Below, piece by piece: positions 7,347-39,173 of a stretch of 64,000 nucleotides of DNA. Each line of letters opens with the position of its first letter. Position 1 is the first letter of the stretch. This DNA comes from Candidatus Aegiribacteria sp. GTDB lineage: Bacteria > Fermentibacterota > Fermentibacteria > Fermentibacterales > JCC-6. The position numbers were made by a program, and so were the translations under genes. The stretch is taken from positions 15,567-79,566 of the forward strand of contig JAGLOY010000064.1 of assembly GCA_023138735.1 (NCBI GenBank), read 5' to 3'. Under the pieces are notes generated by a model that ran no database searches, had not been told where the DNA came from, and saw only the letters and a program-made list of their open reading frames with translations.

Positions 7347-7570
7347 TTCCAGCCTCCTGTTTCCGGCCCTTCCGGGAATTGGATATATATGGAATACAAC
7401 TATATATCCGACCCGATATCATCCAATTTTGCTACCCGAAACTGACCATACTACCCGAACTCCGCAGCTGTCAATGAAGAAACCCTCTGATCACTGCCGG
7501 TATCCATTGGGCAGCTCAGTTTAATCTGAAACCCGTTACCTTTGTCGTTGGATTGATCTGTTCTATCCTG

Positions 7571-8206
7571 TTAATCATCTGATTTAAAATGTCTTCTGGA
7601 AAATACATAACTGGTATTCCTGTTTTTGAACCATTCAACCAACTTCAGAACACCGATATAATTCAGCACGATACCTAGAATGATGCCTGCTATCCATACC
7701 AGCGGTGTTGCTGAACCGCTGCGGATGACGAGGTAGAAAAAACAGACCGAGATGGGTAAAAACAGAATAACGGAAGTCAACATTCCCGGATTGTACAGCG
7801 TTCTTCCTTTAATGTTGAAAATGAATGTGTGCCCTATGAAGTTCCCTGATGAAACCATCATGGTCGCTATGCCCAGCCAGATGGCATTTCCAGCAAAAAT
7901 CGCAGCCAGTGAATAGAACAGCCAGCCTGTTGTAAGGTTGACTATTAGAGCAGAATTGCTGTTTAGGGGAAACCTGTCCGGCTGTGTACTTGAAAACATG
8001 ACCGAGTTCAGCATTTCCGGAAAGTAACCGGGGAAGCGGTATTCTTCAAACTGATGCAGAAACAGGGCAATAAGATTGATGCAGAGCAGCAGTTGTATTC
8101 CGCTTACATTACTGATTAGCAGAAACACGCCGATAATTATAGCGGCGATAAACCCTATATCGAACCAGTGATTTCTAAGAAATCTCATCTTCCTCCTATT
8201 CTGCAT
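7571..8206 (-). CDS. HXXEE-domain membrane protein
   Basis: The HQFEEY motif lies within a polytopic membrane protein. Confidence 0.5.
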   Translation of the reverse strand: MQNRRKMRFLRNHWFDIGFIAAIIIGVFLLISNVSGIQLLLCINLIALFLHQFEEYRFPGYFPEMLNSVMFSSTQPDRFPLNSNSALIVNLTTGWLFYSLAAIFAGNAIWLGIATMMVSSGNFIGHTFIFNIKGRTLYNPGMLTSVILFLPISVCFFYLVIRSGSATPLVWIAGIILGIVLNYIGVLKLVEWFKNRNTSYVFSRRHFKSDD

Positions 8207-8360
8207 ATCTATTCAATTATAACTATTTCCGATTATGTCGGTGCCTGAAATGATGATGTCGATTTGATCCGGGAATCACTCTTTACTTGACATGCTGATG
8301 CTTCATCTCTACTTTCCTTAATCTCTGGTATTTGATCATTTTCAAATGTGAGGAGCTTTT

Positions 8361-9821
8361 ATGAGGCCGGTATTCAGGTTGCTGAGCGATGAGCTTATCG
8401 AAAGGATTATTTCACAAGCGCGTGACATTCTGTGTGATCTTGGCATGGAAATCCATAATGACGGTGTTCTCTCAATGCTGTCGGATCATGGTGCTTCGGT
8501 TGATTCGGAGAAAATGCATGTGTATTTCACCGCTGACATTATAGATAAAGCTCTTGAAACAGCGCCGGATTCAGTTAAGCTTTTTGATGTAATGGGCAGG
8601 CAGACACACGATCTGACCGATCATAACGTTTACTTTACACCTGGTTCCGCGGCGATCAATATCCTTGATCCGCTTAGCGGTGAGATCAGAAAGCCATTAA
8701 CTGCCGATTACGTGGAGTACGCAAAGCTTGTAAGCAGGCTGGATAACATCGCTTCGCAGAGCACCGCGTTCATACCTTCGGATGTTCACGAGAAGATATC
8801 GGACAGCTACAGGCTGTTCCTCAGCCTCCTGTACTGCGAAAAGCCTGTGGTTACGGGCGCTTTTACGATTGATGCATTCAACGTGATGAAGGATCTGCAG
8901 CTGGCCGTTCGCGGGAGTGCAGATGCGCTAAAGGAGAAACCTCTTACGATTTTCTCCTGCTGCCCGACAGCTCCTCTTAAGTGGAGCGACGTAACCTCTC
9001 AGAATCTGGTCGATTGCGCGAAGCATTTCATACCTGTTGAGTATATCTCGATGCCGCTTTCCGGTTTCATGGCTCCGGTAACCCTGGTCGGAAGCCTCGT
9101 GCAGCATACGGCTGAGACACTGAGCGGTGTTGTGCTGAGCCAGCTGACGCAGCCGGGTACTCCGATCATATACGGCGGTTCACCTGCAGCATTCGATATA
9201 AGGTTCGAGACTACACCCATGGGAGCAGTGGAAACGCAGATGATGGACTGCGCCTACAATGAGATAGGCAAGTATCTGAACCTTCCCACTCAGGCTTACA
9301 TTGCCCTGAGCGACGCGAAGAAGCTGGACGCGCAGGCAGGGCTGGAAACCTCGATGGGCGCGACTCTTGCCGCTCTGGCCGGGATAAACAACATCTCCGG
9401 TCCGGGAATGCTGGATTTTGAAAGCTGCCAGAGCCTTGAAAAGCTGGTGGTTGATAACGAGATATGCGGTATGACCCTGAGGCTTGCACGGGGTATCGAA
9501 CCGAAAGAGGATTTCCCTGCAATACCGATCTTCGAGGAACTTCTGCGGGAGAAACACCTTCTGATCGCGAACCATACAAGGAAGCACCTGAGGGATGAGC
9601 ATTATTTCCCGGGCAGGGTCATCGACCGCGCGAACAGCTCCAGGTGGGAGGAGGAGGGAAGCCTAACCATAGGAGATCGGGCAAAAAGTGAGATCGCAAG
9701 GCTGCAAGGAGAGTACGAACCCTCAGGATTGTCCGGTGATATTCTGGCGGAGATGACCAGGCTGATGAGGGCGGAAGCGGCAAGGTTCGGGATGGCTAGG
9801 CTCCCGCACGAGGATCTATGA
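8361..9821 (+). CDS. MttB-superfamily quaternary-amine:corrinoid methyltransferase, non-pyrrolysine member (MtgB/MtpB/MtcB-like)
   Basis: It is 486 aa with no in-frame TAG. Typical MttB-family blocks are present (GSPAAFD, LDFESCQSLEKL). It is followed by corrinoid-protein and MetH-module genes. Confidence 0.75.
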   Translation: MRPVFRLLSDELIERIISQARDILCDLGMEIHNDGVLSMLSDHGASVDSEKMHVYFTADIIDKALETAPDSVKLFDVMGRQTHDLTDHNVYFTPGSAAINILDPLSGEIRKPLTADYVEYAKLVSRLDNIASQSTAFIPSDVHEKISDSYRLFLSLLYCEKPVVTGAFTIDAFNVMKDLQLAVRGSADALKEKPLTIFSCCPTAPLKWSDVTSQNLVDCAKHFIPVEYISMPLSGFMAPVTLVGSLVQHTAETLSGVVLSQLTQPGTPIIYGGSPAAFDIRFETTPMGAVETQMMDCAYNEIGKYLNLPTQAYIALSDAKKLDAQAGLETSMGATLAALAGINNISGPGMLDFESCQSLEKLVVDNEICGMTLRLARGIEPKEDFPAIPIFEELLREKHLLIANHTRKHLRDEHYFPGRVIDRANSSRWEEEGSLTIGDRAKSEIARLQGEYEPSGLSGDILAEMTRLMRAEAARFGMARLPHEDL

Positions 9822-10522
9822 GATCGGTAGTTGATTTCGCTCCGGAAGATGTAATTCTCGACCGCGCTGCAATACTGGGCAGCCAGGGCATTCCAGAAGA
9901 AGCTGAATTGACTGAGAATTTCGAACGGATATACGGAGAAGCGATAGAGCTTTTCAAGGAACTTACTGAGCCTGCAGGGATCATATGCGGAATATCGATC
10001 TCAGGTTTCGAGGAAGTGTTCCGGGGAGAAGGGCTGAACGAACCGTCGAATCCTGTAGAGGATATTTACAGGAAAAGCGGTTACCTCTCACTGTTCGCTG
10101 TTACGCTCGGAGCCGTTCTCAGCGAGAAGGTTACGGAACTCTTCGATAGTGGAGATTATGCATCCGGATATATGCTCGATTCTGTCTCCTCTTACGCCGC
10201 GGACAAACTCTCGGATCTTGCCGCACGGAACCTGCAGTTGGAATTGACCGCGAAGGAACCGGCAGAATCCCAATGGAGGGTCCTCAGCTACAGCCCGGGG
10301 TACTGCGGATGGAACATGAGCGGGCAGAAGAAACTTTTTGAAGTTCTTCGTCCGCAGGAGATAGGTATAACATTGAATGAGAGTTATCTCATGAGCCCGA
10401 TTAAGTCCGTATCCGGTGTGCTTATCGCCGGATCCGGGAAAATTCATGAATTTGTGAGTTCGTACCATTTCTGCGACACATGCAGAACTAAATCATGTAT
10501 CGAGAGGATGCGGAATCTGTAA
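9818..10522 (+). CDS. methionine-synthase (MetH) activation-domain-like protein (AdoMet-dependent reactivation module)
   Basis: SYSPGYCGWNMSGQKKLFEVL...ITLNESYLMSPIKSVSGVLIAGSG closely parallels the MetH reactivation-domain core RYSFGYPACP...LFELL...GVTLTESFAMWPAASVSG. It overlaps mttB by ATGA. Confidence 0.65.
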   Translation: MRSVVDFAPEDVILDRAAILGSQGIPEEAELTENFERIYGEAIELFKELTEPAGIICGISISGFEEVFRGEGLNEPSNPVEDIYRKSGYLSLFAVTLGAVLSEKVTELFDSGDYASGYMLDSVSSYAADKLSDLAARNLQLELTAKEPAESQWRVLSYSPGYCGWNMSGQKKLFEVLRPQEIGITLNESYLMSPIKSVSGVLIAGSGKIHEFVSSYHFCDTCRTKSCIERMRNL

Positions 10523-10555
10523 TTTGGTCATTCACTGACACGGCAGGGGATAAAT

Positions 10556-11197
10556 ATGGAACTACTGGAACAGATATCTTTCAATCTGCAGAATGGTCTT
10601 GATGATGTGGTTGCCGCTCTTACAAAAGATGCTATTGAGAAACGGATACCTCCTGGGGAAATACTGAGCGATGGTCTTATCGCGGGTATGAGTATTGTCG
10701 GAGAGAAATTCAAGAATCATGATATTTTTCTTCCCGATGTCCTGCTTGCAGCAAGGGCGATGAACGGTGCCATGGAAATGTTGAAGCCGCTTCTTATCAA
10801 GGAGGGGATTCCGATCCGAGGCAAGGTTGTAATAGGTTCTGTAAAAGATGATCTGCACGATATCGGGAAGAACCTGGTCGCGATTCTCATCAAAGGCGCG
10901 GGTTTCGAGGTTATCGACCTTGGAAACGATGTTCCGGCGGAGAAATTCATCAGCGCAGCCAAAGAAGAGAACGCGCACGTTATCGGAATGTCCGCTCTTC
11001 TCACCACAACCATGCCTGTCATGAAAAAAGTAGTTGACCTGGCAAAGGATGAAGGGCTGTACGGTAAGATCAGGATCATCGTGGGCGGAGCGCCGGTCTC
11101 GAAAGAGTACGCGCTTGAAATAGGTGCTGACGCATACAGTTACGATGGCGCAAATGCCGTTGAAACGGTCGAATCGTTTTTCCCTGTGAACAATTGA
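10556..11197 (+). CDS. corrinoid (cobalamin-binding) protein, MtgC/MtbC-like
   Basis: A B12-binding Rossmann domain is present with DLHDIG (DxHxxG) and SALLTTTM motifs. An N-terminal helical cap domain is also present. Confidence 0.8.
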   Translation: MELLEQISFNLQNGLDDVVAALTKDAIEKRIPPGEILSDGLIAGMSIVGEKFKNHDIFLPDVLLAARAMNGAMEMLKPLLIKEGIPIRGKVVIGSVKDDLHDIGKNLVAILIKGAGFEVIDLGNDVPAEKFISAAKEENAHVIGMSALLTTTMPVMKKVVDLAKDEGLYGKIRIIVGGAPVSKEYALEIGADAYSYDGANAVETVESFFPVNN

Positions 11198-12090
11198 TGA
11201 ACGGTTTTCTTGAACGCCTCCGCAATGGATCAATACTGGTTGCGGACGGAGCCATGGGAACGATGCTGTTCGAACGGGGACTTAAAAGCGGTGAATGCCC
11301 TGAAGCGATTAACCTCACAAGGCCTTCTGTACTTGAGGAAATCGCCCGGCTCTACCTCGATGCCGGAGCCGACATTATCCAGACTAATACTTTTGGCGGA
11401 TCCCCCCTGAAACTTGCCTCTTACTCACTTGAGGAAAAAGCACTTCTAATAAACAGAAATGCCGTTCTGGCAGTGAAGCGAGCTGTTTCGGGCAGGGCGT
11501 ACGTGTCCGGATCGTGCGGACCCTGCGGGAAAATTCTTAAACCCTACGGAGACACCGATCCTGAGGATATCCTCGAGAGTTTTGAAATTCAGATGCAGGC
11601 TTTTTTCGAATCGGGGTGCGATATTATCTGCATCGAGACGATGATGGATTTAAGTGAAATGCTTCTGGCTCTCCGGGCCGCCAAAGAAAGGGCACCGGGA
11701 ATTCCGGTCATGGCGACCATGACTTTTGACGCAACTCCAAAGGGATTTTTCACGATCATGGGCGATACGATCGAGAAAGCGGCCCATTCGCTCGAAGAGG
11801 CCGGAGCGGATGTTATTGGCTCCAACTGCGGGAATGGAATCGAAGACATGATAAGGATCGCAGAAGAGTTCAGAAAGCGAACAACTCTTCCTCTCATAAT
11901 CCAGTCTAATGCTGGGCTTCCTATAATCGAAAACGGTAGACTTACCTATCCGGAATCACCTGAGTTCATGGCTTCGATGGCGAAGAAGCTGGTCGATTCG
12001 GGTGTGTCGATAATTGGAGGCTGCTGCGGAACAGGCCCTGCGCATATCAGGGCTATAAAGAACGCGATCTCGCCAGCGGGACCTCAATGA
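11194..12090 (+). CDS. homocysteine S-methyltransferase domain protein (MetH Hcy-binding module-like, zinc type)
   Basis: It has a C-terminal IIGGCCGTGPAHI zinc-ligand motif and an internal Cys. Its size (298 aa) matches the PF02574-type domain. It overlaps the corrinoid gene by ATGA. Confidence 0.7.
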   Translation: MMNGFLERLRNGSILVADGAMGTMLFERGLKSGECPEAINLTRPSVLEEIARLYLDAGADIIQTNTFGGSPLKLASYSLEEKALLINRNAVLAVKRAVSGRAYVSGSCGPCGKILKPYGDTDPEDILESFEIQMQAFFESGCDIICIETMMDLSEMLLALRAAKERAPGIPVMATMTFDATPKGFFTIMGDTIEKAAHSLEEAGADVIGSNCGNGIEDMIRIAEEFRKRTTLPLIIQSNAGLPIIENGRLTYPESPEFMASMAKKLVDSGVSIIGGCCGTGPAHIRAIKNAISPAGPQ

Positions 12091-13064
12091 TCAGAGTACT
12101 ATTTCAGGGACATTGGGACAGAAAAGGTATCGATTATCTCAGGGAAAACCTGGATCCCTCTGTACAGATTCTTACCGAAGAAAACGGGATGGATGATATT
12201 GAGATACTGATCTCCGGCAGACCGGACGAAGCTCTCCTCGCAAGAATTCCCGGCATCAAGGTCCTTATCATTCCATGGGCGGGGCTGCCTGAATCAACCG
12301 GTGATCTGTTGAAGAAGTATCCTGCAGTACATGTACATAATATTCATCATAACGCTGCTTCAGCATCGGAGATGGCTGTTGCGCTAATGATGGCTGCCGC
12401 AAGGCTGCTTATTCCGGCTGATAGATCACTCCGAAACAATGACTGGAGCTGGAGATACAATCAGGATAGAGCTGTCCTTATTGAAAGGAGCAGAGTTCTG
12501 ATCCTTGGGTACGGTCATGTCGGCAGCCGTGCGGGAGCGGTGTGCAGGGCCATGGGTGCGAAAATTACCGGAATACAGCGCATACCATCGGCACCTTTCT
12601 CGGAAGAAGGTATACCTCTATTCTCCTCTGAGCGGCTTTCCGAACTTCTTGTAAAGACGGATATACTGATAGTAGCACTTCCGCTTACTTCCGATACAAA
12701 GGGCATCATCGGAAAACATGAACTTGATCTGCTTCATGACAGGTCGATTGTGGTGAATGTAGGCAGAGGGCAGCTCATCGATGAGGAATCTCTTTACTAT
12801 CATCTTCGCAATAACCTGATCGGAGCAGCCGGAATTGATGTCTGGTACAATTACCCGTCAGGTAAGGAGACGGTATCTGATACCTCGCCCTCAGAATATC
12901 CTTTCGGAACACTGGATAACATTGTGATGTCACCGCATATGGGAGGCGCATTCAACCATGAGGAACTCGAGAGACAGCGTATGATTCATCTTGCGGAGTT
13001 CCTGAACCTGTATGCCGCCGGTGAACCTTTGCCGAACAGAATAGATCTTGAACAGGGTTATTGA
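12087..13064 (+). CDS. D-isomer-specific 2-hydroxyacid dehydrogenase family protein
   Basis: It has the NAD-binding motif GYGHVGSRAG and the catalytic region VGRGQLIDEESL...MSPHMGG. Confidence 0.7.
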   Translation: MIRVLFQGHWDRKGIDYLRENLDPSVQILTEENGMDDIEILISGRPDEALLARIPGIKVLIIPWAGLPESTGDLLKKYPAVHVHNIHHNAASASEMAVALMMAAARLLIPADRSLRNNDWSWRYNQDRAVLIERSRVLILGYGHVGSRAGAVCRAMGAKITGIQRIPSAPFSEEGIPLFSSERLSELLVKTDILIVALPLTSDTKGIIGKHELDLLHDRSIVVNVGRGQLIDEESLYYHLRNNLIGAAGIDVWYNYPSGKETVSDTSPSEYPFGTLDNIVMSPHMGGAFNHEELERQRMIHLAEFLNLYAAGEPLPNRIDLEQGY

Positions 13065-13152
13065 TCTGATATTGTAAGCCGTATCTTCCACGGATACAAA
13101 GGAGGCCATCATTAAGCCATCACTGGTCAGACTTCTCATTATCGTAGCGATC

Positions 13153-14295
13153 ATGGCCTGTGCCGGGGCAGTCTTCTCATCAGTGATGCCCGATTATCTG
13201 AAGAACCATATCGGCATTGAAGGTGATGTTAGAGGGGCGCTTGAAATCCCGCGTGAGCTTCCTGGATTTCTGCTGGTGTTCATTACGGGGATTCTTGTTT
13301 CCATGCGGAGGCATAATGCGTTCGGAGGCGTATTCCTTATTGGAATAGCGGCTTTTATCGGACTGGCCTTCCTTGTGAAAACTCTCCCGATGTTTATCAT
13401 TTTCATGGTTCTGTGGTCGACAGCGGCCCACGCGTTCATGCCTCTTCGAGATGCCGTGGCTATAGATCTTGCCGGAGTAGACAGGAGAGGCTGGATCCTG
13501 GGGCGAATCGGTGCATTCAGATCCGGAGGCCTGATAATCGGTGCAGCCGCTGTATGGCTGCTGATGGAGCAGCTGAAAGCGGATTTCAGAATAATCTGGA
13601 TATTTGCGGCCGGGATCATGCTTCTCGGAGCGATATTCTCATTCACTCTTCCCGAGAGGAAAGAGAAGAACAGGTCTGTAAAAAAAGTGAAGCGGTTCCT
13701 GTATCGAAAGGAATACAGGCTCTACTATCTGCTGTGTATGCTTTTCGGTGCGAGAAAACAGATATTCCTGACTTTCGCTCCGTGGATGCTGGTAAGCTTA
13801 TTCGCTCAGACCGCGCCTGATCTTGCAGTTGTAATGGGTATCAGCGCGATTCTGGGTCTGTTCATTAAACCATGGTTCGGCAATATGATAGACAGATTCG
13901 GTGAGAGAACGATACTGATGGTCGATGCCGTTCTTATCGTGCTGTTGTGTACAGGGTATGCTGTAGTGCCAAACCTGTTTGGGCCCGGAATCGCACTGCT
14001 TCTTCTGTATTCTTTCTTTATTATGGATGAGCTTCTGTTCAGCCTGGCGATGGCCAGAACCACGTATCTATCGAGTATTGTTCATGACAAGAATGATATG
14101 ATCCCGACTATGGGACTGGGGGGAACACTCGATCATGCCGTCTCGATGATAGTTCCGCTGATAGGCGGAATCCTCTGGGTAACGATCGCGCCATGGGCCG
14201 TGTTCACGTTCGCAGGGCTTGTTGCCATCGTAACATTTTTCGTTGTTCGCCGCATACCCCGAAAGCTCGAGATGGGTCATCAAACAGCTCACTGA
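13153..14295 (+). CDS. MFS-type transporter
   Basis: Twelve predicted helices with MFS-like spacing are present. The true start may lie upstream (see findings). Confidence 0.55.
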   Translation: MACAGAVFSSVMPDYLKNHIGIEGDVRGALEIPRELPGFLLVFITGILVSMRRHNAFGGVFLIGIAAFIGLAFLVKTLPMFIIFMVLWSTAAHAFMPLRDAVAIDLAGVDRRGWILGRIGAFRSGGLIIGAAAVWLLMEQLKADFRIIWIFAAGIMLLGAIFSFTLPERKEKNRSVKKVKRFLYRKEYRLYYLLCMLFGARKQIFLTFAPWMLVSLFAQTAPDLAVVMGISAILGLFIKPWFGNMIDRFGERTILMVDAVLIVLLCTGYAVVPNLFGPGIALLLLYSFFIMDELLFSLAMARTTYLSSIVHDKNDMIPTMGLGGTLDHAVSMIVPLIGGILWVTIAPWAVFTFAGLVAIVTFFVVRRIPRKLEMGHQTAH

Positions 14296-14592
14296 TTTAC
14301 TCAGGGTTTGCTATATTTCTCATAGTCTTGATATATTCCCTTATGCGACAGTCGCAAGTTCGATCAACGCCGATACTCAATCGGCATCAAGGAAGGAGGT
14401 AGTAATGGTTCAGCGTAACAATAACCGGCAGGGGTGTCGGGCTTACTAGCCGCCTTCTTTCATAAATTCTACATCATAGCAGGTAAGGCAGGAAGACCGC
14501 GTAGCGTCTGAGACGCGCTGTATCCAGAGTGGGTGCCTCTGCCGGTTTTTTCATGAGTTTATATTTATACAAGTGTATTATTTGGAGGTTAT

Positions 14593-17547
14593 ATGAATCC
14601 TGTAATTGTCTATCGTGATTATCGCGATTCCGATGCGGATGGAATTGTCCGCATGTGGAACTCCAGCCTTTCCGGCTGGCCGCCCGGGTTCTTCGGGGCG
14701 TCCGAGATTACCGCTGCCAGCGTAGCGCGGGAGGAAAAAAGCTCTGGAAGGCTATTTACAGTGGTTGCGCTTTCAGAAGATGATGTTGTGGGTTTCTGCA
14801 GAACCAGCCCTTACGGGGGAGAGCCCAGTGCTTCCTATGTAGACATCATAAATGTTGTTCCAGGGATGCATGGAAAGGGAATAGGGAAAGCCCTGCTGCT
14901 GGATGCGGTATCCAGATCTGCTGCTTTAAACTTGAAGCGAATCGATCTGCATACGTGGCCTGCCAACATGAAAGCCGTGCCACTATACAAAAAGACCGGG
15001 TTCTTCTGGGTACCGGAGACGATGGTGTACATGCAGAACTACATGCCTTCTCTGCTGGGAATGAAGGAGTTCCTTGAATTTCTGGAGGGGGAGGACTGGT
15101 ACAGGTGCTTTGAGAGGGCGCTTCTCGTAGAGCAGGATGAGGAGAAGACCAAATCCGGAAGGGAGATCTTCACGTACGATTTCCGCAGGAATGATAAAAA
15201 GTTCACAGCGGAGTTCGATAAGAGCGGGAGGGTGTTGTCACGGATGGAGTACCCCGGTTTCAGCGCCGGATTGACCGTAGATTCCGGCAGGGAATACTTC
15301 GTAGGGAGATCATACAAGGTAACTCTTTCCGGTTCAGGATACGATGCGGAAAATATCAGCGTGAATTGCGGCAGCTCCATCGAGCAGATTGAGACCGCGT
15401 CCGAAACCACTATGGTTACACCGCTGCCGGTGAGGATCGCAAAAACGCCCTACGAACCGGCAGACTGCATCAAAGTAAGTATTGAAAGTCCGAAGCTTGA
15501 ACTGGGTCTTGGTGTGAACGGGGTCCCAGAGGTTGCTCTGTATTCTCCTCCTGTGATGTTCCTGCCGCCTGGGGCCCGGGAACTGGAGTTGGATTTGAAG
15601 GCACTTGCGAAGTTGTCCTCCGTGTCGCTCCGATACGCCGTTGATGGGGGGGAATTCTGTGAAAAACAGATATCCCTGACATCGGGAATCTACCAGAGCT
15701 GCATCGTACCGCTGCTGCAAATGGAACAGGGTATTCATACCCTTTCGGTGCGGCTGGGCGAAGCGGGTTACCTGGAAACCATGATATTTGTTGTGGGCGT
15801 GCATTCCGGTGAGCCGGTTGTGCTGGACACACGGAAAGCTGCAGTGATAGTCGGCAGCGATGTCGCTTTGAGTGTAGCCCGAAAGGGCGCCTCCACAACT
15901 ATATGGAGCCGATCTGAAGGCAATCGCCCGAGGAAACTGGCCCGGTTCTTCATCGATGCAGGACCGCCTGTGGTGTGGAACTCGGACCTGCCGAAGCAGA
16001 CGTACAGCCTGGAACTGGACAAAGGCAAGGTAACGGCGAGGACATCCTGGCCCTCGAGGCAGGGAATGACTCACTGGGTGCAGGTGAGGCTGGACCCCTC
16101 CGGGTACGCTCAGACCATCGCAGGTGTGGAAAACGGTTCCGATGTGGTTCAGAGGGTACTTTTTCGCGGCAGCGGCACTTTCAGCGACGAGTTCATGCCC
16201 AAAAGCGACATGATACCGCTTGCAGACGGCCTTATGGTTGAGCCAAGGATATTCAACCAGGTGCCGGACTGGGGAGAGGATCTTACCAGCTCCGTATCCG
16301 GGTTGACTGCACCATGGACTGGTGTGACCGGATCGGGAATATCGATCATGAACTACTTCCCGGAATGGACCGAGCTGGAGTACGACATGGCGGGCACACC
16401 CGAAGTTGATGTCGCTCCTGGAGAAACTCTGACATCACCACCTTTCCGAGTGCTTTTCGCCGAAGGTGGTGTAGAGAATCTTATGATCAGGGCTTCCGCT
16501 CTGGGATGGAATACAGGTGACTGGAAGAAGAGAACCTCTTTCTTCCTGCACAACCTCGATTCGGTAATGGTGTCAGGTATCGAAGTATCTCTGAGCCATC
16601 CCCTCCATGGAGAGCGGGAAGCCCGGATTGATGCCGGTTCAAAGGAGATCTGTTCCGGAAAAGTACGTCAGGGTGTTTCCGTGTCGGGCAAACTGCCTGG
16701 TGAGGAAGTCGTTAACGTGAGCATGTCGCTTGCGAAGCGGTCAATGGTTATGCCTGTGTTTCTGGTGGGAGCTGCAAAGGTGGTTGATGCCGGTCTCGAT
16801 GATTCCGGTTGTCTCTTCCTGTCCAACGACACGGTACGGGCTCTCATAGATCCTTCCGCATGCGGCCATGTGTACTCACTTGCGCGGAATGGAGGAGTGG
16901 AGTATCTGCTGTCCTCGCACCCGGAACCCTCCGAGTTCTGCTGGGATAAGCCCTGGTTCGGAGGAATACATCCTCGGATCATGGACAACAGGGAGAATCC
17001 CTATCTCCTGCAGAACGAAAAGCCGGAGATAGAGGAGTACACCAGAATCTCAGGCGGTCTGACCGAAAAAGGATGGCGTATGACCTGGCTTATAGATCAC
17101 AAGAAGTACGGTTCGCTGAAGCTGGACTGGAGTGTCGGGCTGCTGCCTTCGGTTCCGGTGCTGAACACCACTCTGGAATACGCTGCTATATCAGGCACCA
17201 ATATGAGTGGAGAACTTGATATCAGGGGATTCATTCAGCCAGGAGGGTCCGTTGACGACGGAGTCCTTACATGCGAGAGCTTCCCCGGCCTTATCCAGGG
17301 TCGCGAACATGCGGGAACCTGGGCCGAGATGGGTAAATGGGCTCGAGTTAGCCGGGAGAAGTGCTTCGTTGAGGCTTACTCCGGCGGGGATGGTGTTTTC
17401 TTCTGTGAGGATTTCAGCAAAGAAGGCTGCCACTTCTCTGTGTTCAGTGATCATGGCCGGAAGAGAACATTCCGAATGACATGGATATTCGGGGCCACGG
17501 AAGCAGATGAGGCCCTGGCCGCGGTTTACAGGGCTCACCGAAAGTAA
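14593..17547 (+). CDS. GNAT N-acetyltransferase domain fused to a large (about 800 aa) uncharacterised domain, cytoplasmic
   Basis: The N-terminal 170 aa contain the GNAT motifs VVGFCRT...GKGIGKALL. No signal peptide is present. The rest has no recognisable motif. Confidence 0.6.
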   Translation: MNPVIVYRDYRDSDADGIVRMWNSSLSGWPPGFFGASEITAASVAREEKSSGRLFTVVALSEDDVVGFCRTSPYGGEPSASYVDIINVVPGMHGKGIGKALLLDAVSRSAALNLKRIDLHTWPANMKAVPLYKKTGFFWVPETMVYMQNYMPSLLGMKEFLEFLEGEDWYRCFERALLVEQDEEKTKSGREIFTYDFRRNDKKFTAEFDKSGRVLSRMEYPGFSAGLTVDSGREYFVGRSYKVTLSGSGYDAENISVNCGSSIEQIETASETTMVTPLPVRIAKTPYEPADCIKVSIESPKLELGLGVNGVPEVALYSPPVMFLPPGARELELDLKALAKLSSVSLRYAVDGGEFCEKQISLTSGIYQSCIVPLLQMEQGIHTLSVRLGEAGYLETMIFVVGVHSGEPVVLDTRKAAVIVGSDVALSVARKGASTTIWSRSEGNRPRKLARFFIDAGPPVVWNSDLPKQTYSLELDKGKVTARTSWPSRQGMTHWVQVRLDPSGYAQTIAGVENGSDVVQRVLFRGSGTFSDEFMPKSDMIPLADGLMVEPRIFNQVPDWGEDLTSSVSGLTAPWTGVTGSGISIMNYFPEWTELEYDMAGTPEVDVAPGETLTSPPFRVLFAEGGVENLMIRASALGWNTGDWKKRTSFFLHNLDSVMVSGIEVSLSHPLHGEREARIDAGSKEICSGKVRQGVSVSGKLPGEEVVNVSMSLAKRSMVMPVFLVGAAKVVDAGLDDSGCLFLSNDTVRALIDPSACGHVYSLARNGGVEYLLSSHPEPSEFCWDKPWFGGIHPRIMDNRENPYLLQNEKPEIEEYTRISGGLTEKGWRMTWLIDHKKYGSLKLDWSVGLLPSVPVLNTTLEYAAISGTNMSGELDIRGFIQPGGSVDDGVLTCESFPGLIQGREHAGTWAEMGKWARVSREKCFVEAYSGGDGVFFCEDFSKEGCHFSVFSDHGRKRTFRMTWIFGATEADEALAAVYRAHRK

Positions 17548-32907: not shown

Positions 32908-33914
32908 TTACTCCTGCCGTATCAGTGCTGCTGCCATTCCGTAATCCTGAGCAGTACTTCGATGATGCACTTCAATCTATAGCGGAACAGACATTCACGG
33001 ATTTTGAAGCAGTACTGATAAATGACGGTTCGGATGAGTCGTCAGTCATGCTTGCGGAAGACTGGTGCAAAAAGGATCCCAGATTCACACTTGTTAACAA
33101 TTCAGGTTCGGGACTGGTAGACGCTCTGAACACGGGGCTTGCGGAGTGCAGCGGTACCTGGATTGCAAGAATGGATGCGGACGATATCTCATTGCCTGAT
33201 CGAATAGAGAAGCAGCATGAGCTTGCAGTATCCCAAGGACCCATGACCGTGGTATCCTGCCAGGTCCGGAGTTTTCCCCGGGAAATTATCACACGCGGCT
33301 TCAAGTTGTATGAGGAGTGGCTGAACAATCTGACTGAACCCCTGGATATAGAGAAGAACCTGTTCATTGAAAGCCCGATACCGCATCCAACTGCTTTTTT
33401 CCACAGGCAGAATATTCTTGCGGAAGGCGGGTACATGGAAAAGGAACTGCCGGAGGATTACGAATTATGGCTTAGACTCTGGAGCAGGGGTTACAGATTC
33501 ATCCGTGTACCTTCGGTCCTTCTGAAGTGGAGGGATCATCCAGGAAGACTTTCTCGAACCAGCAGTGCTTACTCACTTACAAGTTTCTATATGCTTAAGG
33601 CAAAGTACCTTGAACATGTTCCATGCATGTCAGGTAAAATCGTTTACATAGCCGGGAGCGGGCAGACTGCTCGAAGACTTGGAAAATGTCTGCAGGATAA
33701 CGATTATCATATTAAAGCCTTCATTGATCCTTCTCCCGAAAGACAGGGGGCGATGTTAAGAGGAAGACCTGTGAGGGGACCGGGTGAGTTGTCAAGCCGG
33801 TCTGACATACCTGTGATAATAGCCTCAAGGCTACCCGGAGCGAGGAAAACCATAATGGAATTTCTTGACAGACTGGGATTTGTCGAGTGGGAGAATTATG
33901 TTGCCTGTTCATGA
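32904..33914 (+). CDS. family 2 glycosyltransferase with C-terminal NeuD/PglD-N-like Rossmann extension
   Basis: VSVLLPFRN...DGSDE and a DAD motif are present. The start (TTG 32904 or GTG 32925) is uncertain. Confidence 0.55.
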   Translation: MITPAVSVLLPFRNPEQYFDDALQSIAEQTFTDFEAVLINDGSDESSVMLAEDWCKKDPRFTLVNNSGSGLVDALNTGLAECSGTWIARMDADDISLPDRIEKQHELAVSQGPMTVVSCQVRSFPREIITRGFKLYEEWLNNLTEPLDIEKNLFIESPIPHPTAFFHRQNILAEGGYMEKELPEDYELWLRLWSRGYRFIRVPSVLLKWRDHPGRLSRTSSAYSLTSFYMLKAKYLEHVPCMSGKIVYIAGSGQTARRLGKCLQDNDYHIKAFIDPSPERQGAMLRGRPVRGPGELSSRSDIPVIIASRLPGARKTIMEFLDRLGFVEWENYVACS

Positions 33915-34011
33915 ATGCTCTGGGGGAATTGTCAATCAGGATTTTGAGGCTATATTAAACCGAAATCGATTTTTCGTTTGTGTAAGAACTTTAATTATCG
34001 GGAGGTAGAAA

Positions 34012-34353
34012 TTGAATATCAAGCAGCAAATGAAGGGCGATGTTCTTGTTGTTGCTCTATCCGGTAAAGTTATTGGCGGCCCCGAGCTTATGGAAGTAAA
34101 AGATGTATTCCAGAAAGCCGTTGATCAGGATAAAAAAAAGGTTCTGCTTGACCTCGGGAGAGTCAGCTGGATGGATAGTTCAGGTCTGGGTGTAATTGTA
34201 TCAGGCCATACTACCCTCTCAAGAGCAGGTGGATCCCTTAGAATTCTCAATGCCACCAAGAAAATTCACGAATTGTTCATCATAACGAAGCTGATAACCA
34301 TCTTCGATACATATACTGATGTGCAGGAAGCGTTGAATAGTTTCGGAGAATGA
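34012..34353 (+). CDS. STAS-domain anti-sigma-factor antagonist (SpoIIAA/RsbV-like)
   Basis: The conserved phosphorylatable DSSGLG motif is present. Confidence 0.8.
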   Translation: MNIKQQMKGDVLVVALSGKVIGGPELMEVKDVFQKAVDQDKKKVLLDLGRVSWMDSSGLGVIVSGHTTLSRAGGSLRILNATKKIHELFIITKLITIFDTYTDVQEALNSFGE

Positions 34354-34769
34354 TCGTGCACGCTATAGAAATACGTTTGCCAAGTGATGTTTCCGTACTC
34401 GAACCACTTCAGTTGATGATTGAAGCTATTGGAAGATCGGCAGAGGTTGAGGATGATGATCTCTCCATATTGTCAGTTGCGGTTATTGAACTGGCAAAGA
34501 ACGCAATGGAGCACGGAAACAAGAATAACCCCGAGAAGACTGTTACTGTCAGTTTTAGCATTTTTCCAAACAGGATACGGTTTACGATTGACGATGAAGG
34601 ATCCTGGGAACCTGAGAAAGCCCTTGGCTTCAATCCGGGAGAGGGGAATGAACTTCTTCTAACAAGGGGTAGAGGAGTTCTTATCGCTCGTAACCTGGCT
34701 AAATGGGTTGAGTTTGGTCTTACTCCGGAAGGAAAAACGAGGGTTACTCTTATCTGGCCTCTGACCTGA
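34350..34769 (+). CDS. anti-sigma regulatory factor, serine kinase (RsbW/SpoIIAB-like HATPase)
   Basis: The N-box IELAKNAMEHG is present. It overlaps the STAS gene by ATGA. Confidence 0.7.
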   Translation: MIVHAIEIRLPSDVSVLEPLQLMIEAIGRSAEVEDDDLSILSVAVIELAKNAMEHGNKNNPEKTVTVSFSIFPNRIRFTIDDEGSWEPEKALGFNPGEGNELLLTRGRGVLIARNLAKWVEFGLTPEGKTRVTLIWPLT

Positions 34770-34785
34770 AAGCGATTCTCATCCC

Positions 34786-37700
34786 GTGAACAGTTTCACT
34801 CTTTCAGTAGTATTTGAAAGTAGAGAACTGCCCGGGGGTGTCCGGGATATCCTAATAACAGATGCTGAGCTTCTCATCCCTCCCAGATGGGCTGATGAAA
34901 TCCAGATTTCATCAGTGGATACCTCGATCCCTGATGCTCTGCTGCTTGTAATCAGCGGACCGCTGTCTCCGAAACTCCGAAACATTTACTACAACTGCTT
35001 CAGGCATGCTGTCCCGATAGCCGGGATATGCTTCATGAATTTGCCGGAGGATGATGACGCAGTTCAGGATCTTCTGAACAAAGCTATCTGCTGGAAATTC
35101 TCGTCGGCCAACGAGGGCAGAGAGCTGCTCCGGAACGAGATTCAGAGTTGGCTTCGAAGCCTTAACCGGGAGTTCTTTCCCTACCCGGAGGGCAATGATC
35201 TGCTTCAATCCTACGGTGATATCGATGTACTTTCGGTAGACATGGATTCGCTTGAGAAAGCCAGGAAAGTTATTACGGAACGTGGATTCGTCTGCCTGAG
35301 CGGTTCCCTGGGTGCTGGAAAAACCACCATTGCCAGAAAACTGCTTGTGGAAGCCTCTCTGGATAACCTGAATCCGATCGAGCTCATTACGCGGGATCTG
35401 TACTTCAGGGAAGTCGTGCAGCTTCTTACAGGTTCTGAGGATTGCGCAGTTTTCCTTGATCTTGATACTCTCAGGAGAATGGTGGATATCTATCCCTCCC
35501 GTCTGTGGGCATCGGTCATCTCACTTATGACAAGAGCTACAGAATCAAGGCACAGACTGATACTTGCAACATCCTCTCCGGAGATCGCCAGAATATTCGA
35601 TTCGTACGGCGATGCCCATGTCAGACTCCCTGAACCATCTACCTATCGGAAATGGAGACTGGATCAGGGCAGGGAGGCTCTGAAGTGGTTCCGCAGACTT
35701 CCTGCACTCGAGAAAGCTGAACTGCTGCTGCTTGCCGCCTTCGATCCCGTTGTTGCCGAAGCTGTATTCAAGCGGGTACTATTCAGGTTGCTCGACAGGC
35801 TCATTGTACAGGAGGATAAAAGATTCCCATCCAATGAAGAGCTTGAAGAGCTCTACAGTAAATCACTCGCTGCGGGAGGTGCTGATCCATTCAGAAGGGT
35901 TTACGGAAGTGATGAAGTGTATATCACCGTGAGTGATTCTGTCCGGATGTGGGCCATCGACAGAGGTATTCGTGAACTGCTTGAAAAGGATGCTCCGGTC
36001 ATCAGGGCGTTTGCAGATACGCTGATCGGGAGCGAGGAGCCGGGTGTAAGACGGGCAGGGTACTTCCTTGCCAGCTTCTACAAAAGCCTCTCCGATGAAG
36101 TTAAGGCAAAACTTCTTCTGCATATTGCATCCGAGAAATCCAGAACGGTTCTTACTGATGTCCTTAACATGCTGCTGAGCTCTGCAGATCATACGGATGA
36201 GTCGATAATAAGCATGTACAGGATAATGATGGCGAAGGGTAATACTGAAGTAAGAATGGCGGTTGCCGGAACTCTCGGGCGGCAATGGGTGCTTGAGCTG
36301 CCGGCATTCGGGGATCTTGTGAATGCGGCGGTGAATGACTCTGAACCGGGAGTGCGGGGACAGTTCATTCAGGATCTGACCATGTGGGGAATGTCTGAGA
36401 AATGCGGAAAGATTTACAGAGATTTTCTGGAGGACGATGCATACGAAGTCCGTCAGGGTCTGATGCTGTACATAGGCAGCAAGTTTCCCGGGCTTGACCC
36501 GAGGGAATTCGATGTACTGAATGAGGTGCTGGAAGAGGGCGACCCCGGATTGATGACTACCCTTATAATGGGGCTTCTGGATAGAAAACTTGAGGAGTTC
36601 AACCAGGAATTCAACGATCTGCTCTGGGTGCTGATGGACAGATTGCCTCCCGGAGGGAAGGGAAGACTGGCATGGAGGATCGGAGCAAGGCTCAGGTTCT
36701 TCAGCAGTGAAGTCAGAAAATCCCTCAGAACCGATCCGGCAGAGGAAGATATTCTTCAGGTCTCGCGCTGTATGCTGATGAATTACTCTTCCCTTGATCA
36801 TGAGGAGAGGGAGAACCTCTGGGAGCTCATCCATGAACGAATCGCCTTCAGCAGGGAATTCGCCAGCATGGTATTGGGATACTACACTATCATGGATCCC
36901 CGAATCAGAATTAATCTTCTGATCGAGGTGCTTATATCGGATCACTACGGTGGAAGGGAGGCTCTCAGTCAGCTGATCTGCCTCGGAAGGACTGATCTGA
37001 TCGATGCATCTGTTGATCTGGTCGCACATATTCTCGAAACCGGCGAATTCAAGAAGAGAGCCGCGCTTCCATTCTTCATACTCTGGAATGAACGTGACCT
37101 CGGTGAACCGGTTTCCGGTTTTATTGCTGAATTCTGGATGGACTCCTCGTCTTACGTTCGGAAATCACTGGTGAACGCTATCCGGAGCCTTGGAATCAGA
37201 ACCAATTTAACCTTTAATGTGCTCTGTACACTGGCTCTGGATGATAAACGGGCGGTAAGGGCTGCCGTCGCCAGGACGCTTGGAGAGTTTGAAAACGATG
37301 AATCCGATGATCTTGATCTGACGCTGAAGGAGCTTCTTGATGATGAAGATCCCTATGTGCGTCTTGGTGCTCTTTCCGGCCTGCTTTCCAATGTTGCCAT
37401 TTCCGACGTTAAACTTCTTCCCGTGGTCATGAGTGCTTTTGATGATTCTGCATCAGATGTACGGCTCGAGATCATTTCCGGTCTCCGAAGTCACCCGGAG
37501 CTGTACTCAATATCGGATGTGGATGTTAAACTTGCAGACATGTTCACCGATCCTGATAGAAATGTACGAATGGAAGTTATACGACTAGTTACCGAAACTC
37601 CGGAGCTGCTTGCTTCGGATATCATCAGGACCAGGATGCCCGATATTCTTCTTAACAGGTTCTCCGCAGGACATGCCATATCGGAAGAACTGAACATGGC

Positions 37701-38400
37701 TAGAAAGATACAGCTTGACCTGCTTCCGGACAGCCCTCCCAGTCTTGAGGGTTACGATATCGAGATTTTCTACAGGCCCGCCAGCGAGGTAGGAGGCGAT
37801 TACTACGATTTCTTCCATCTTCCAGATCGTAATCTTGGACTGGCAGTGGCCGATGTAGCAGGGAAAGGCATACCGGCGGCTCTTACAATGGCAGGGCTCA
37901 AGGGCAACCTGGTAGCCTACGTACAGAGTATCTACTCCATCAGCGAGATAATTCAGAAAGTTAATGAATCCTCCGTTCTGGGGGAGGGTGATCCTATAAT
38001 GACCGGATTATTCTACGGTGTGCTGGATCTTGACTCGGGCAAGCTTACTTATGTTAACGCAGGACATAATCCACCGCTTCTTGTGAAGAGGGAGGGAGAA
38101 TCTCAGTGGCTTGAGAAGGGTGGGCTTATAATGGGTCTGTCGGCCCAGGCAGAATACGAGCACGGAACAGTGAAACTTGAATCAGGGGATGTGCTTATCC
38201 TCTACACAGATGGATTGACAGAGGCCATGGATTCAGCGAATTTTGAATTCGGGACAGAGAGACTCTGCGATGTTGTTCTGGAAAACCGTGATCTCTCCGC
38301 GCACCAGATATCAAGCGGGATACTGGATGCTGTTAACTCCTATTCAAAGGGCTTGCCGCAGGGGGATGACCAGACCCTTGTGGTTCTGAAATACAGGTGA
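34786..38400 (+). CDS. 1204-aa multidomain PP2C/SpoIIE-type phosphatase with N-terminal P-loop NTPase and HEAT/PBS-lyase-like repeats
   Basis: It has Walker A GSLGAGKTT. HEAT-like repeats (EVRMAVAGTLG, DPYVRLGALSGL, DVRLEIISGL, NVRMEVIRLV) are present. The C-terminus carries GGDYYDF...ADVAGKG...LYTDGLTEA. Confidence 0.75.
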   Translation: MNSFTLSVVFESRELPGGVRDILITDAELLIPPRWADEIQISSVDTSIPDALLLVISGPLSPKLRNIYYNCFRHAVPIAGICFMNLPEDDDAVQDLLNKAICWKFSSANEGRELLRNEIQSWLRSLNREFFPYPEGNDLLQSYGDIDVLSVDMDSLEKARKVITERGFVCLSGSLGAGKTTIARKLLVEASLDNLNPIELITRDLYFREVVQLLTGSEDCAVFLDLDTLRRMVDIYPSRLWASVISLMTRATESRHRLILATSSPEIARIFDSYGDAHVRLPEPSTYRKWRLDQGREALKWFRRLPALEKAELLLLAAFDPVVAEAVFKRVLFRLLDRLIVQEDKRFPSNEELEELYSKSLAAGGADPFRRVYGSDEVYITVSDSVRMWAIDRGIRELLEKDAPVIRAFADTLIGSEEPGVRRAGYFLASFYKSLSDEVKAKLLLHIASEKSRTVLTDVLNMLLSSADHTDESIISMYRIMMAKGNTEVRMAVAGTLGRQWVLELPAFGDLVNAAVNDSEPGVRGQFIQDLTMWGMSEKCGKIYRDFLEDDAYEVRQGLMLYIGSKFPGLDPREFDVLNEVLEEGDPGLMTTLIMGLLDRKLEEFNQEFNDLLWVLMDRLPPGGKGRLAWRIGARLRFFSSEVRKSLRTDPAEEDILQVSRCMLMNYSSLDHEERENLWELIHERIAFSREFASMVLGYYTIMDPRIRINLLIEVLISDHYGGREALSQLICLGRTDLIDASVDLVAHILETGEFKKRAALPFFILWNERDLGEPVSGFIAEFWMDSSSYVRKSLVNAIRSLGIRTNLTFNVLCTLALDDKRAVRAAVARTLGEFENDESDDLDLTLKELLDDEDPYVRLGALSGLLSNVAISDVKLLPVVMSAFDDSASDVRLEIISGLRSHPELYSISDVDVKLADMFTDPDRNVRMEVIRLVTETPELLASDIIRTRMPDILLNRFSAGHAISEELNMARKIQLDLLPDSPPSLEGYDIEIFYRPASEVGGDYYDFFHLPDRNLGLAVADVAGKGIPAALTMAGLKGNLVAYVQSIYSISEIIQKVNESSVLGEGDPIMTGLFYGVLDLDSGKLTYVNAGHNPPLLVKREGESQWLEKGGLIMGLSAQAEYEHGTVKLESGDVLILYTDGLTEAMDSANFEFGTERLCDVVLENRDLSAHQISSGILDAVNSYSKGLPQGDDQTLVVLKYR

Positions 38401-39173
38401 TTCGGATTAATATTCTGTTCCTGCTTTCAGACTTTGGAGCATCAGACACCTATGTCGCCCAGATGAAAGCGGTGATATTCTCGGAGTGCTCCCGTTCCGT
38501 TGTAATAATCGATCTTACGCATGATGTTAAAGCTGGTTCCATCAGTGAAGCCGCTTTCCATCTCTATGTTTCCGCGAAACATATTCCGGCGGGTTCTGTA
38601 GTGGTGGCTGTCGTCGACCCCGGTGTGGGAACCGCCCGCAGAGGGGTGGTCTGCAAAGTAGAAGGTGTTTATTACGTAGGACCGGATAACGGTATCTTCG
38701 GACTTCTGCCCCTGATCGGAGCCTGGAAACTTCCAGATCCGCATGCAGAGTCGAGCAGTACGTTTCACGGAAGGGATGTTTTCGCACCTGCCGGGGCCAG
38801 ACTTTTGCTCGATCCGGGGTGGGTTGATTCTCTGGAACCGATTGACAAAGAAGATCTCGTACCGTCGAATATCGAGATGCCGATACCGGTGGATGACGGA
38901 TTGAAAGTAACGGTCGCCCATATAGATGTATTCGGCAATATCATTCTCTGGTTACCCCTGTCCAGTGCATTTCGTCCTGCTTTCCTGCAGCTCCCCTGCG
39001 GCAGGATTGAACCTGTCACTGAGGTTGAAACCTACGACTCCCATCCCGGTATTCTCTTCCTTCAGGGCAGCGGGGGATTAATTGAAATAGCTGTCAGCTG
39101 CGGATCTGCATCCGAACTTCTAGGATTGAGCGCAGGAGACAGGATTCTGCTTATTAAGGAATGTAACGGATGA
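38397..39173 (+). CDS. SAM hydroxide adenosyltransferase family protein (DUF62, fluorinase/chlorinase-like fold)
   Basis: The DPGVG and FHGRDVFAP motifs are present. It has a GTG start overlapping the upstream stop (GTGA). Confidence 0.7.
   Translation: MIRINILFLLSDFGASDTYVAQMKAVIFSECSRSVVIIDLTHDVKAGSISEAAFHLYVSAKHIPAGSVVVAVVDPGVGTARRGVVCKVEGVYYVGPDNGIFGLLPLIGAWKLPDPHAESSSTFHGRDVFAPAGARLLLDPGWVDSLEPIDKEDLVPSNIEMPIPVDDGLKVTVAHIDVFGNIILWLPLSSAFRPAFLQLPCGRIEPVTEVETYDSHPGILFLQGSGGLIEIAVSCGSASELLGLSAGDRILLIKECNG

Follow-up and report, generated by a model that had tools for sequence, protein, structure and literature searches.

A conserved four-gene cassette in Candidatus Aegiribacteria is a candidate corrinoid-dependent methionine synthase with an MttB-family donor module

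The window analysed here, a 64-kb stretch of a metagenome-assembled genome (MAG) of Candidatus Aegiribacteria sp. (Fermentibacterota) to whose positions all coordinates refer, carries at 8361-12090 four adjacent genes that probably encode a four-component, corrinoid-dependent methionine synthase supplied by a methyl donor that is neither a folate nor a betaine. The product of the first gene is a TIM barrel of an MttB clade (the methyltransferase MT1), which would bind a small methylated donor, the methyl group of which would be taken by the Co(I) form of the corrinoid protein (Cbl) encoded by the third gene. From the resulting methyl-Co(III), the group would be moved to homocysteine, giving methionine, by the product of the fourth gene, a zinc protein of the type found as the homocysteine-binding domain of the cobalamin-dependent methionine synthase MetH (Hcy, or MT2). 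Were the corrinoid to be accidentally oxidised to Co(II), the product of the second gene, an activation protein (Act) resembling TM0269 of Thermotoga maritima, would restore it by reductive methylation with S-adenosylmethionine (SAM), and a putative four-cysteine metal site in this protein may help by receiving the electron. We infer this direction of methyl flow, and methionine as its product, from the kinds of protein encoded and from their conservation as a unit.

The idea was already in print in 2022. Williams et al. (Environ Microbiol 24:2576, PMC9324843) found the same cluster in Ca. Electryoneota and 'diverse bacteria', assigned its MttB homologue to a clade separate from MtgB and MttB, and hypothesised a novel corrinoid-dependent synthesis of methionine from an unknown methyl donor. 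The Fermentibacterota cassette is a new member of this described, biochemically uncharacterised system; added here are its distribution (at least 590 matches), an analysis of the donor pocket against betaines, a Cys4 motif in the activation protein and the observation that the flanking genes are not conserved.

Four proteins in one conserved unit

A first-pass annotation of the region, made from the sequence alone, had assigned the four genes to an MttB-superfamily methyltransferase independent of pyrrolysine (Pyl), a stand-alone MetH reactivation domain, a corrinoid protein and a zinc-type homocysteine methyltransferase. All four domain assignments hold, on the strength of Pfam matches, sub-threshold NCBIfam matches, an alignment with TM0269 and a fold match. 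Six + strand open reading frames (ORFs) were confirmed between 8361 and 14295, the last two lying downstream of the cassette; no NCBIfam model reached its cut-off for any of the six proteins, the best sub-threshold models being MttB, MtgC, a YitJ-type homocysteine methyltransferase and MetH. The exact proteins are also present in the Candidatus Aegiribacteria sp. MAG GCA_030634805.1 and in one European Nucleotide Archive (ENA) metagenome scaffold. Motifs are described below as kept where they are conserved in at least 95% of orthologues, counted over 56-81 sequences depending on the protein.

The 486 aa product of the first gene (8361..9821, + strand) matches the MTTB family (PF06253, E = 3.3e-73), and since its ORF is uninterrupted, with no UAG, it belongs to the non-Pyl part of the superfamily as first proposed. 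Leu316 aligns with Pyl334 of Methanosarcina barkeri MttB; Met249 of that enzyme is kept as Met231, and its Gly110 and Tyr364 are replaced by Ser96 and Ser346. The TIGR02369 model scores 362 bits, under its cut-off of 525. A Pyl-dependent trimethylamine methyltransferase of the MttB type was therefore ruled out, on the lack of an in-frame UAG, the residues Leu316, Ser96 and Ser346, and the sub-threshold TIGR02369 score. With about 28% identity to Desulfitobacterium hafniense MtgB, and as much to M. barkeri MttB, it belongs to a third lineage, apart from both. Within the MttB homologue of one Phycisphaerales locus (L004:8946-9045, + strand; locus numbers are our own), Rfam reports a match of 40.3 bits (gathering score 38) to PYLIS_3, the insertion sequence for pyrrolysine in mttB. 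It lies immediately 3' of the codon that corresponds to Pyl334, which in this gene encodes Leu, with no UAG; the most likely source of the match is coding sequence that still resembles true mttB, not a functional element.

The second gene (9818..10522, + strand) encodes the 234 aa activation protein. Its match to Met_synt_B12 (PF02965, E = 6e-11; 42.7 bits, with the gathering score at 25) covers profile positions 120-249 only; it is backed by homology to TM0269 and by the predicted fold, and the reading as a MetH-type activation protein is thereby sustained. The phmmer alignment with TM0269 (PDB 1J6R, E = 6.7e-8) takes in residues 8-200 and is nearly end to end; TM0269 is reported to be required to reactivate T. 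maritima MetH (Huang et al. 2007). An AlphaFold2 (AF2) model built from 16 orthologues, with a predicted local distance difference test score (pLDDT) of 88.8 and a predicted template modelling score (pTM) of 0.86, again has 1J6R as its top PDB match in Foldseek (template modelling score 0.80, target-normalised). The reactivation domains of Escherichia coli, Thermus thermophilus and human MetH follow, and everything further is insignificant. The motif PGYCGW and a C-terminal C-x2-C-x4-C, followed by x2-R, are kept in 69 orthologues; PGY is thus retained from the RPAPGY motif of MetH, the Arg of which is missing. Four cysteines (C163, C219, C222 and C227) are invariant in the same 69 sequences, and TM0269 has Gly at the position of C163. 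This set could possibly form an iron-sulphur (Fe-S) or zinc site for the entry of an electron; the C-terminal 30 residues of the model are less confident (pLDDT 66-74). The protein is predicted to carry out the SAM-dependent reductive remethylation of Co(II). It had been suggested at the outset that it takes the place of the RamA activase, and indeed a MetH/TM0269-type activator is present and no RamA-like gene occurs among the Pfam-annotated genes of the window.

The corrinoid protein (10556..11197, + strand; 213 aa) matches B12-binding_2 (PF02607, E = 2.7e-19) and B12-binding (PF02310, E = 1e-28). It consists of a four-helix cap and a Rossmann B12 domain with the His-on motif DxHxxG, here DLHDIG, and DLHDIGKNLV, SALLTTTM (containing SxL) and GGA (containing GG) are kept in 68 orthologues. 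Its best PDB matches are 1Y80 from Moorella (2e-50), MttC (7XCN_M, 3e-39) and MetH (1BMT, 8e-33), and its best NCBIfam matches are of the MtgC and pyl_corrinoid types, all under cut-off. It is the predicted methyl shuttle of the system.

The fourth gene (11197..12090, + strand) encodes a 297 aa protein of the S-methyl_trans family (PF02574, E = 1.5e-68). Its best PDB match is the homocysteine domain of T. maritima MetH (1Q7M, E = 2.3e-51), with BHMT (5e-19) and homocysteine methyltransferases of the S-methylmethionine/SAM type (2e-13) as weaker matches. As the homocysteine domains of MetH, which use methylcobalamin, are far ahead of BHMT, the product is of the MetH homocysteine-binding type, as had been claimed, and not pterin-binding. 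DGAMGT, ETM.D..E, GSNCGNG and GGCCGT, including the three zinc-ligand cysteines, are kept in 56 orthologues, and the protein is predicted to convert methyl-Co(III) and homocysteine to methionine. A match to the NCBIfam 'BHMT' model (220 bits) was considered as a sign of betaine use and rejected, because it is below cut-off and because the bacterial 'Bhmt' family has itself been argued to be the corrinoid-dependent MtgE module (Mausz et al., PMC12478193).

The MttB and Act genes overlap by an ATGA (9818-9821), as do the Hcy gene and the dehydrogenase gene downstream of it (12087-12090); between Cbl and Hcy there is a TGATG at 11195-11199, in which ATG 11197 overlaps the TGA of the corrinoid gene by 1 nt. 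The translational coupling proposed for the operon therefore stands at three of the five junctions, and not at the other two, where gaps of 33 nt (Act to Cbl, with a Shine-Dalgarno-like AGGGGA) and 88 nt (dehydrogenase to transporter) are found. Similarly, the ORF annotated for Hcy at 11194-12090 is real, but gene callers choose ATG 11197 as its start, the TTG at 11194 being an alternative. A scan for promoters and terminators across 7400-14800 gave counts at shuffle level and was uninformative, and a permissive Rfam search of 8150-8420 returned only a chance snoRNA match (E = 0.54).

A distribution scan using one genome per species returned at least 590 matches, the best 80 loci of which were analysed; 60 of these have enough downstream sequence to be informative. 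The four genes are linked in 50 of the 60, with the order MttB-Act-Cbl-Hcy in 46, an added gene of the major facilitator superfamily (MFS) in two and Act in first position in two; three others lack Act and seven are partial. About a dozen phylum-level labels are represented among the best 80 loci (Fermentibacterota, Planctomycetota/Phycisphaerae, Zixibacteria, WOR-3/Stahlbacteria, Acidobacteriota/Aminicenantes, Bacteroidota/Ignavibacteria, Cloacimonadota, Elusimicrobiota, Gemmatimonadota, Clostridia, TA06 and Fidelibacterota). The carriers include small genomes of 1.9-2.3 Mb and eight closed MAG chromosomes (CP070638.1, CP070685.1, CP070686.1, CP070705.1, CP070718.1, CP070744.1, CP070756.1 and CP070795.1), the smallest of 1.9 Mb. 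Orthologues from different phyla are 70-75% identical for MttB, 57-67% for Cbl, 54-68% for Hcy and 38-49% for Act. Gene order is preserved, between unrelated flanks, in a closed genome of Phycisphaerales, on a WOR-3 scaffold and in another lineage. Linkage of all four genes in 50 of 60 loci across many phyla cannot be explained by chance, and the cassette is hence a conserved unit, with the same genes almost always in the same order and with unrelated flanks. This in turn supports the modular logic put forward in the first-pass annotation, in which a methyl group passes from donor to corrinoid to homocysteine with reactivation by SAM; the betaine-type donor that formed part of the same proposal is not supported, as described below. 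Variant architectures were noted among loci L031, L040, L057, L060, L064, L067, L075 and L081. Two Phycisphaerales loci have only the MttB and corrinoid genes, and in Bacteroidota loci the activation gene lies upstream of MttB.

No pterin-binding domain (PF00809) was detected by Pfam annotation in the cassette or the window, nor in 88 related loci (1.03 Mb) with a phmmer probe at E values up to 10, the probe being a single, Pfam-validated sequence that could miss very divergent pterin-binding proteins. The module of MetH that binds methyl-tetrahydrofolate (methyl-THF) is thus absent from the cassette, with the MttB barrel in its place, in agreement with the initial description. Pfam annotation revealed neither metH nor metF in the rest of the 64-kb window.

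The donor pocket and rival readings

In MtgB, glycine betaine is bound through cation-pi contacts with Y97 and F356, and its carboxylate by R312 and H348 (Picking et al. 2026, PMC13080624). R312 forms a salt bridge with the acidic group of the substrate and is conserved in MtgB, MtcB, MtpB, MthB and MtyB, which are all the characterised members with acidic substrates; the Y97/F356 aromatic pair is specific to MtgB and not conserved in the other characterised members. The R312L variant is inactive, and Y97A or F356L raises the Km several hundred-fold (PMC13080624). The corresponding positions were located in 81 members of the clade with two aligners, HMMER and MAFFT L-INS-i. Y97 corresponds to Ser96 of the window protein (Ser in 80 of 81 members), R312 to Gln311 (Gln in 81 of 81 with both aligners), H348 to Ser346 (Ser in 81 of 81) and F356 to Glu354 (Glu in 81 of 81). 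S96, Q311, L316, S346 and E354 are the clade-invariant pocket residues, and the full signature, including C201, C219, C297 and C356, holds down to about 53% identity in a library of 50%-identity representatives. A wider uncharacterised radiation has Ser...His/Gln...Ser...Glu in common, and among the 103 nearest full-length representatives, Arg occupies position 311 in just three.

From these residues we infer a polar, partly acidic pocket, which would suit a non-acidic cationic or polar donor. Because Y97, R312, H348 and F356, all four of the residues with which MtgB holds glycine betaine, become S, Q, S and E throughout the clade, a betaine is an improbable methyl donor, and the glycine betaine, proline betaine and carnitine-type substrates initially proposed find no support. 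As judged from the alignment, the donor most likely belongs to the non-acidic methylated amines or to other small methyl compounds of cationic or polar character. The MttB homologue also has an unusual set of clade-invariant cysteines (C200, C201, C219, C297, C356 and C369), of which only C201 is common to M. barkeri MttB; C356 is two residues from the pocket residue Glu354. These cysteines might form a metal site, and a Zn-dependent activation of methanol or a thiol by them was considered as a reading.

Were the cassette nevertheless a corrinoid-dependent betaine:homocysteine methyltransferase, with the MttB homologue using glycine betaine, proline betaine or a carnitine-type amine, it would conform to all characterised non-Pyl MttB-family enzymes, which use quaternary amines. 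The hosts come from saline or sediment habitats in which betaines are common, and this species has an MFS transporter gene in the same operon. We consider this quite unlikely, given an invariant Gln for R312, Ser for H348 and Ser/Glu for Y97/F356 in 80-81 of 81 members, an identity to MtgB of only about 28%, which places the protein equally far from MttB, and the finding that none of the 80 loci has a linked BCCT or ABC betaine transporter and the MFS gene is not conserved. It is very unlikely that the MttB-clade barrel itself binds methyl-THF or a methyl-pterin, in which case the cassette would be a four-piece MetH with ordinary physiology. Several features do have a housekeeping character, namely the wide spread, the unrelated flanks, the lack of a linked transporter, the genomes of 1.9-2.3 Mb and the 70-75% conservation of MttB; furthermore, the TIM-barrel fold is common to MttB and pterin-binding domains, both of which offer a methyl group to a corrinoid, and the Ser, Gln, Ser and Glu of the pocket are polar. 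Yet no member of the MttB family is known to have a pterin substrate, PF00809 is universally available for that job, and the canonical MetH in the same MAGs of Williams et al. argues for a different donor (PMC9324843).

Other observations weigh against a dedicated methionine synthase with a non-folate, non-betaine donor. Loci L031, L040 and L057 lack Act, and L060 and L064 lack Hcy. A full-length MetH stands beside the cluster in both of the MAGs described by Williams et al. (PMC9324843), so the cassette need not be the main methionine synthase of the cell. Neither a transporter nor a gene related to the donor is linked to the cassette in the flanks of the 80 loci, and no SAM or B12 riboswitch or other regulatory signal of the methionine type was found upstream in an Rfam search at gathering thresholds of the window and three distant loci. 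The pocket assignment is based on sequences aligned at about 28% identity rather than on a structure with bound ligand, and full-text searches of the literature turned up no biochemical study of the clade. There is also precedent, in Ruegeria pomeroyi and Phaeobacter inhibens, for an MtgBCDE-like arrangement, in which an unlinked MtgD-like protein with a pterin-binding domain would share the corrinoid protein, methyl groups from the MttB arm would enter the folate pool for catabolism, and methionine would be made from methyl-THF through the unlinked module. This is unlikely to apply here: the operon is tight and devoid of PF00809 in 50 of 60 loci and 1.03 Mb of flanks, no methyl-oxidation or metF2-type genes are linked, and the roseobacter modules are scattered and served by RamA and DUF1638 rather than by a TM0269-like activator.

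Neighbouring genes

Downstream of the cassette lie a gene of the D-2-hydroxyacid dehydrogenase family (DH; 12087..13064, + strand; 2-Hacid_dh_C, PF02826, E = 2e-39) and an MFS transporter gene (13111..14295, + strand; MFS_1, PF07690, E = 5e-21), the first ATG of which is at 13153. Both had been counted as parts of the system. However, DH homologues in the 1.03 Mb of related loci are confined to the window and the same-species contigs L001 and L002, and among the 80 loci the MFS gene adjoins the cassette only in the window species, L009 (95% identity) and L011 (89% identity). Since neither gene is conserved with the cassette, they are local additions and not parts of the system. In L009 and L011, which are sister Fermentibacteria, the MFS gene directly follows the Hcy gene; the DH gene seems to have been inserted between the two in the window species alone. 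The MFS orthologues start with ATG (L009) and GTG (L011) at 'M/V-KPSLI...', where the window has ATT (13111-13113), 7 nt after an AGGAGG. Either a rare ATT/ATC start would be used in the window, or translation would begin at ATG 13153 with the loss of 14 residues of the first helix.

Clustering of the 1930 flank ORFs of the 80 loci, by which recurrent neighbours were sought, revealed only within-lineage synteny, with no family in more than six loci and no recurrence of transporter, pterin, metF or RamA families. Directly downstream of the operon, 14593-17547 (+ strand) encodes a 984 aa protein with an N-terminal GNAT acetyltransferase domain (residues ~50-138) and about 840 further residues without a Pfam match. 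A partner-switching-like set at 33900-39173 (+ strand) comprises a STAS protein, an anti-sigma-type HATPase_c kinase and a 1204 aa nSTAND3-HEAT-SpoIIE phosphatase, after which a gene of the SAM hydrolase family (SAM_HAT, PF01887/PF20257) is found at 38397-39173. Otherwise the window contains genes of a housekeeping kind, for instance for type IV pili, tRNA synthetases and a sigma factor.

Significance and relation to known systems

It is possible, if still tentative, that the cassette constitutes a folate-independent route to methionine in hundreds of mostly uncultured anaerobes, combining an MttB homologue with a Ser/Gln/Ser/Glu pocket, a non-acidic donor (for example trimethylamine, choline or tetramethylammonium), direct transfer from the corrinoid to homocysteine and an activator with a Cys4 metal or Fe-S centre. 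If so, many bacteria of sediments, hypersaline sites and digesters, including Fermentibacterota, Phycisphaerae, Zixibacteria, WOR-3, Aminicenantes and Ignavibacteria, would draw on an environmental methyl compound, and not on methyl-folate, for their methionine and thereby for their SAM. MAG-based predictions of auxotrophy and one-carbon metabolism would change, and there would be an extra sink for methylated amines. The chemistry of the MttB superfamily would extend past acidic quaternary amines, and the activator would define a stand-alone type of MetH reactivation protein that may hold a metal centre. The clade's genes now carry the label 'trimethylamine methyltransferase', and pathway inferences drawn from that label would need revisiting. 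One study from 2025 inferred mercury methylation driven by trimethylamine, with 'MttB' as the sole corrinoid methyltransferase in MAGs of Zixibacteria, Desulfobacterota and Spirochaetota that lack MetH (PMC12484752); as Zixibacteria carry the cassette, these 'MttB' genes may belong to the Pyl-free clade described here and be part of a methionine synthase. The cassette is compact, at four genes, widespread and experimentally tractable.

With the split MetH of T. maritima, in which TM0268 unites homocysteine, pterin and B12 modules and is accompanied by TM0269, the cassette has in common the homocysteine domain, the DxHxxG B12 module and the fold of the activator. It differs in having an MttB-family barrel where MetH has PF00809 and in making every module a separate protein; its corrinoid protein is nearer to methylamine- and Mtg-type corrinoid proteins than to the MetH domain, and its activator has four invariant cysteines.

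Mausz et al. 2025 (PMC12478193) and a 2025 preprint established for the roseobacters that the demethylation of betaine and the synthesis of methionine have one corrinoid protein in common. In the MtgBCDE system of R. pomeroyi and P. inhibens, the pterin-binding MtgD is essential, reactivation is by RamA and DUF1638, and MtgBCD and MtgECD are viewed as alternative complexes, direct flow from MtgB to MtgE not being claimed (PMC12478193). This system (see also the three-part split MetH of Price et al. 2018) resembles the cassette in its PF06253 protein, its stand-alone corrinoid and S-methyl_trans proteins and its tie between methylamine-type demethylation and methionine synthesis; in contrast to its dispersed genes, with MtgD and RamA/DUF1638, the cassette is a tight operon with no pterin module, a TM0269-type activator and another pocket.

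Non-Pyl MttB enzymes (MtgB, MtpB, MtcB, MtyB and MthB) likewise have a PF06253 TIM barrel, Leu at the Pyl position and a DxHxxG partner. The cassette protein, however, is without the acid-binding Arg, the equivalent of His348 and both aromatics, and its acceptor module is for homocysteine where theirs is for THF or coenzyme M, with no RamA linked. Methionine synthesis that bypasses methyl-folate is also known from the 'core' methionine synthases MesA-D, of which MesA to MesC probably draw on corrinoid proteins (Price et al. 2021, PMC7857596). Their catalytic domains are related to MetE, whereas the cassette pairs a MetH-type homocysteine domain with a dedicated MT1, corrinoid protein and activator. 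The cluster of Williams et al., matched by its description, has the same four components, a non-Pyl MttB/MtgB homologue, a homocysteine S-methyltransferase, a corrinoid protein and an activation protein; the host phylum differs, being Fermentibacterota (Aegiribacteria) here.

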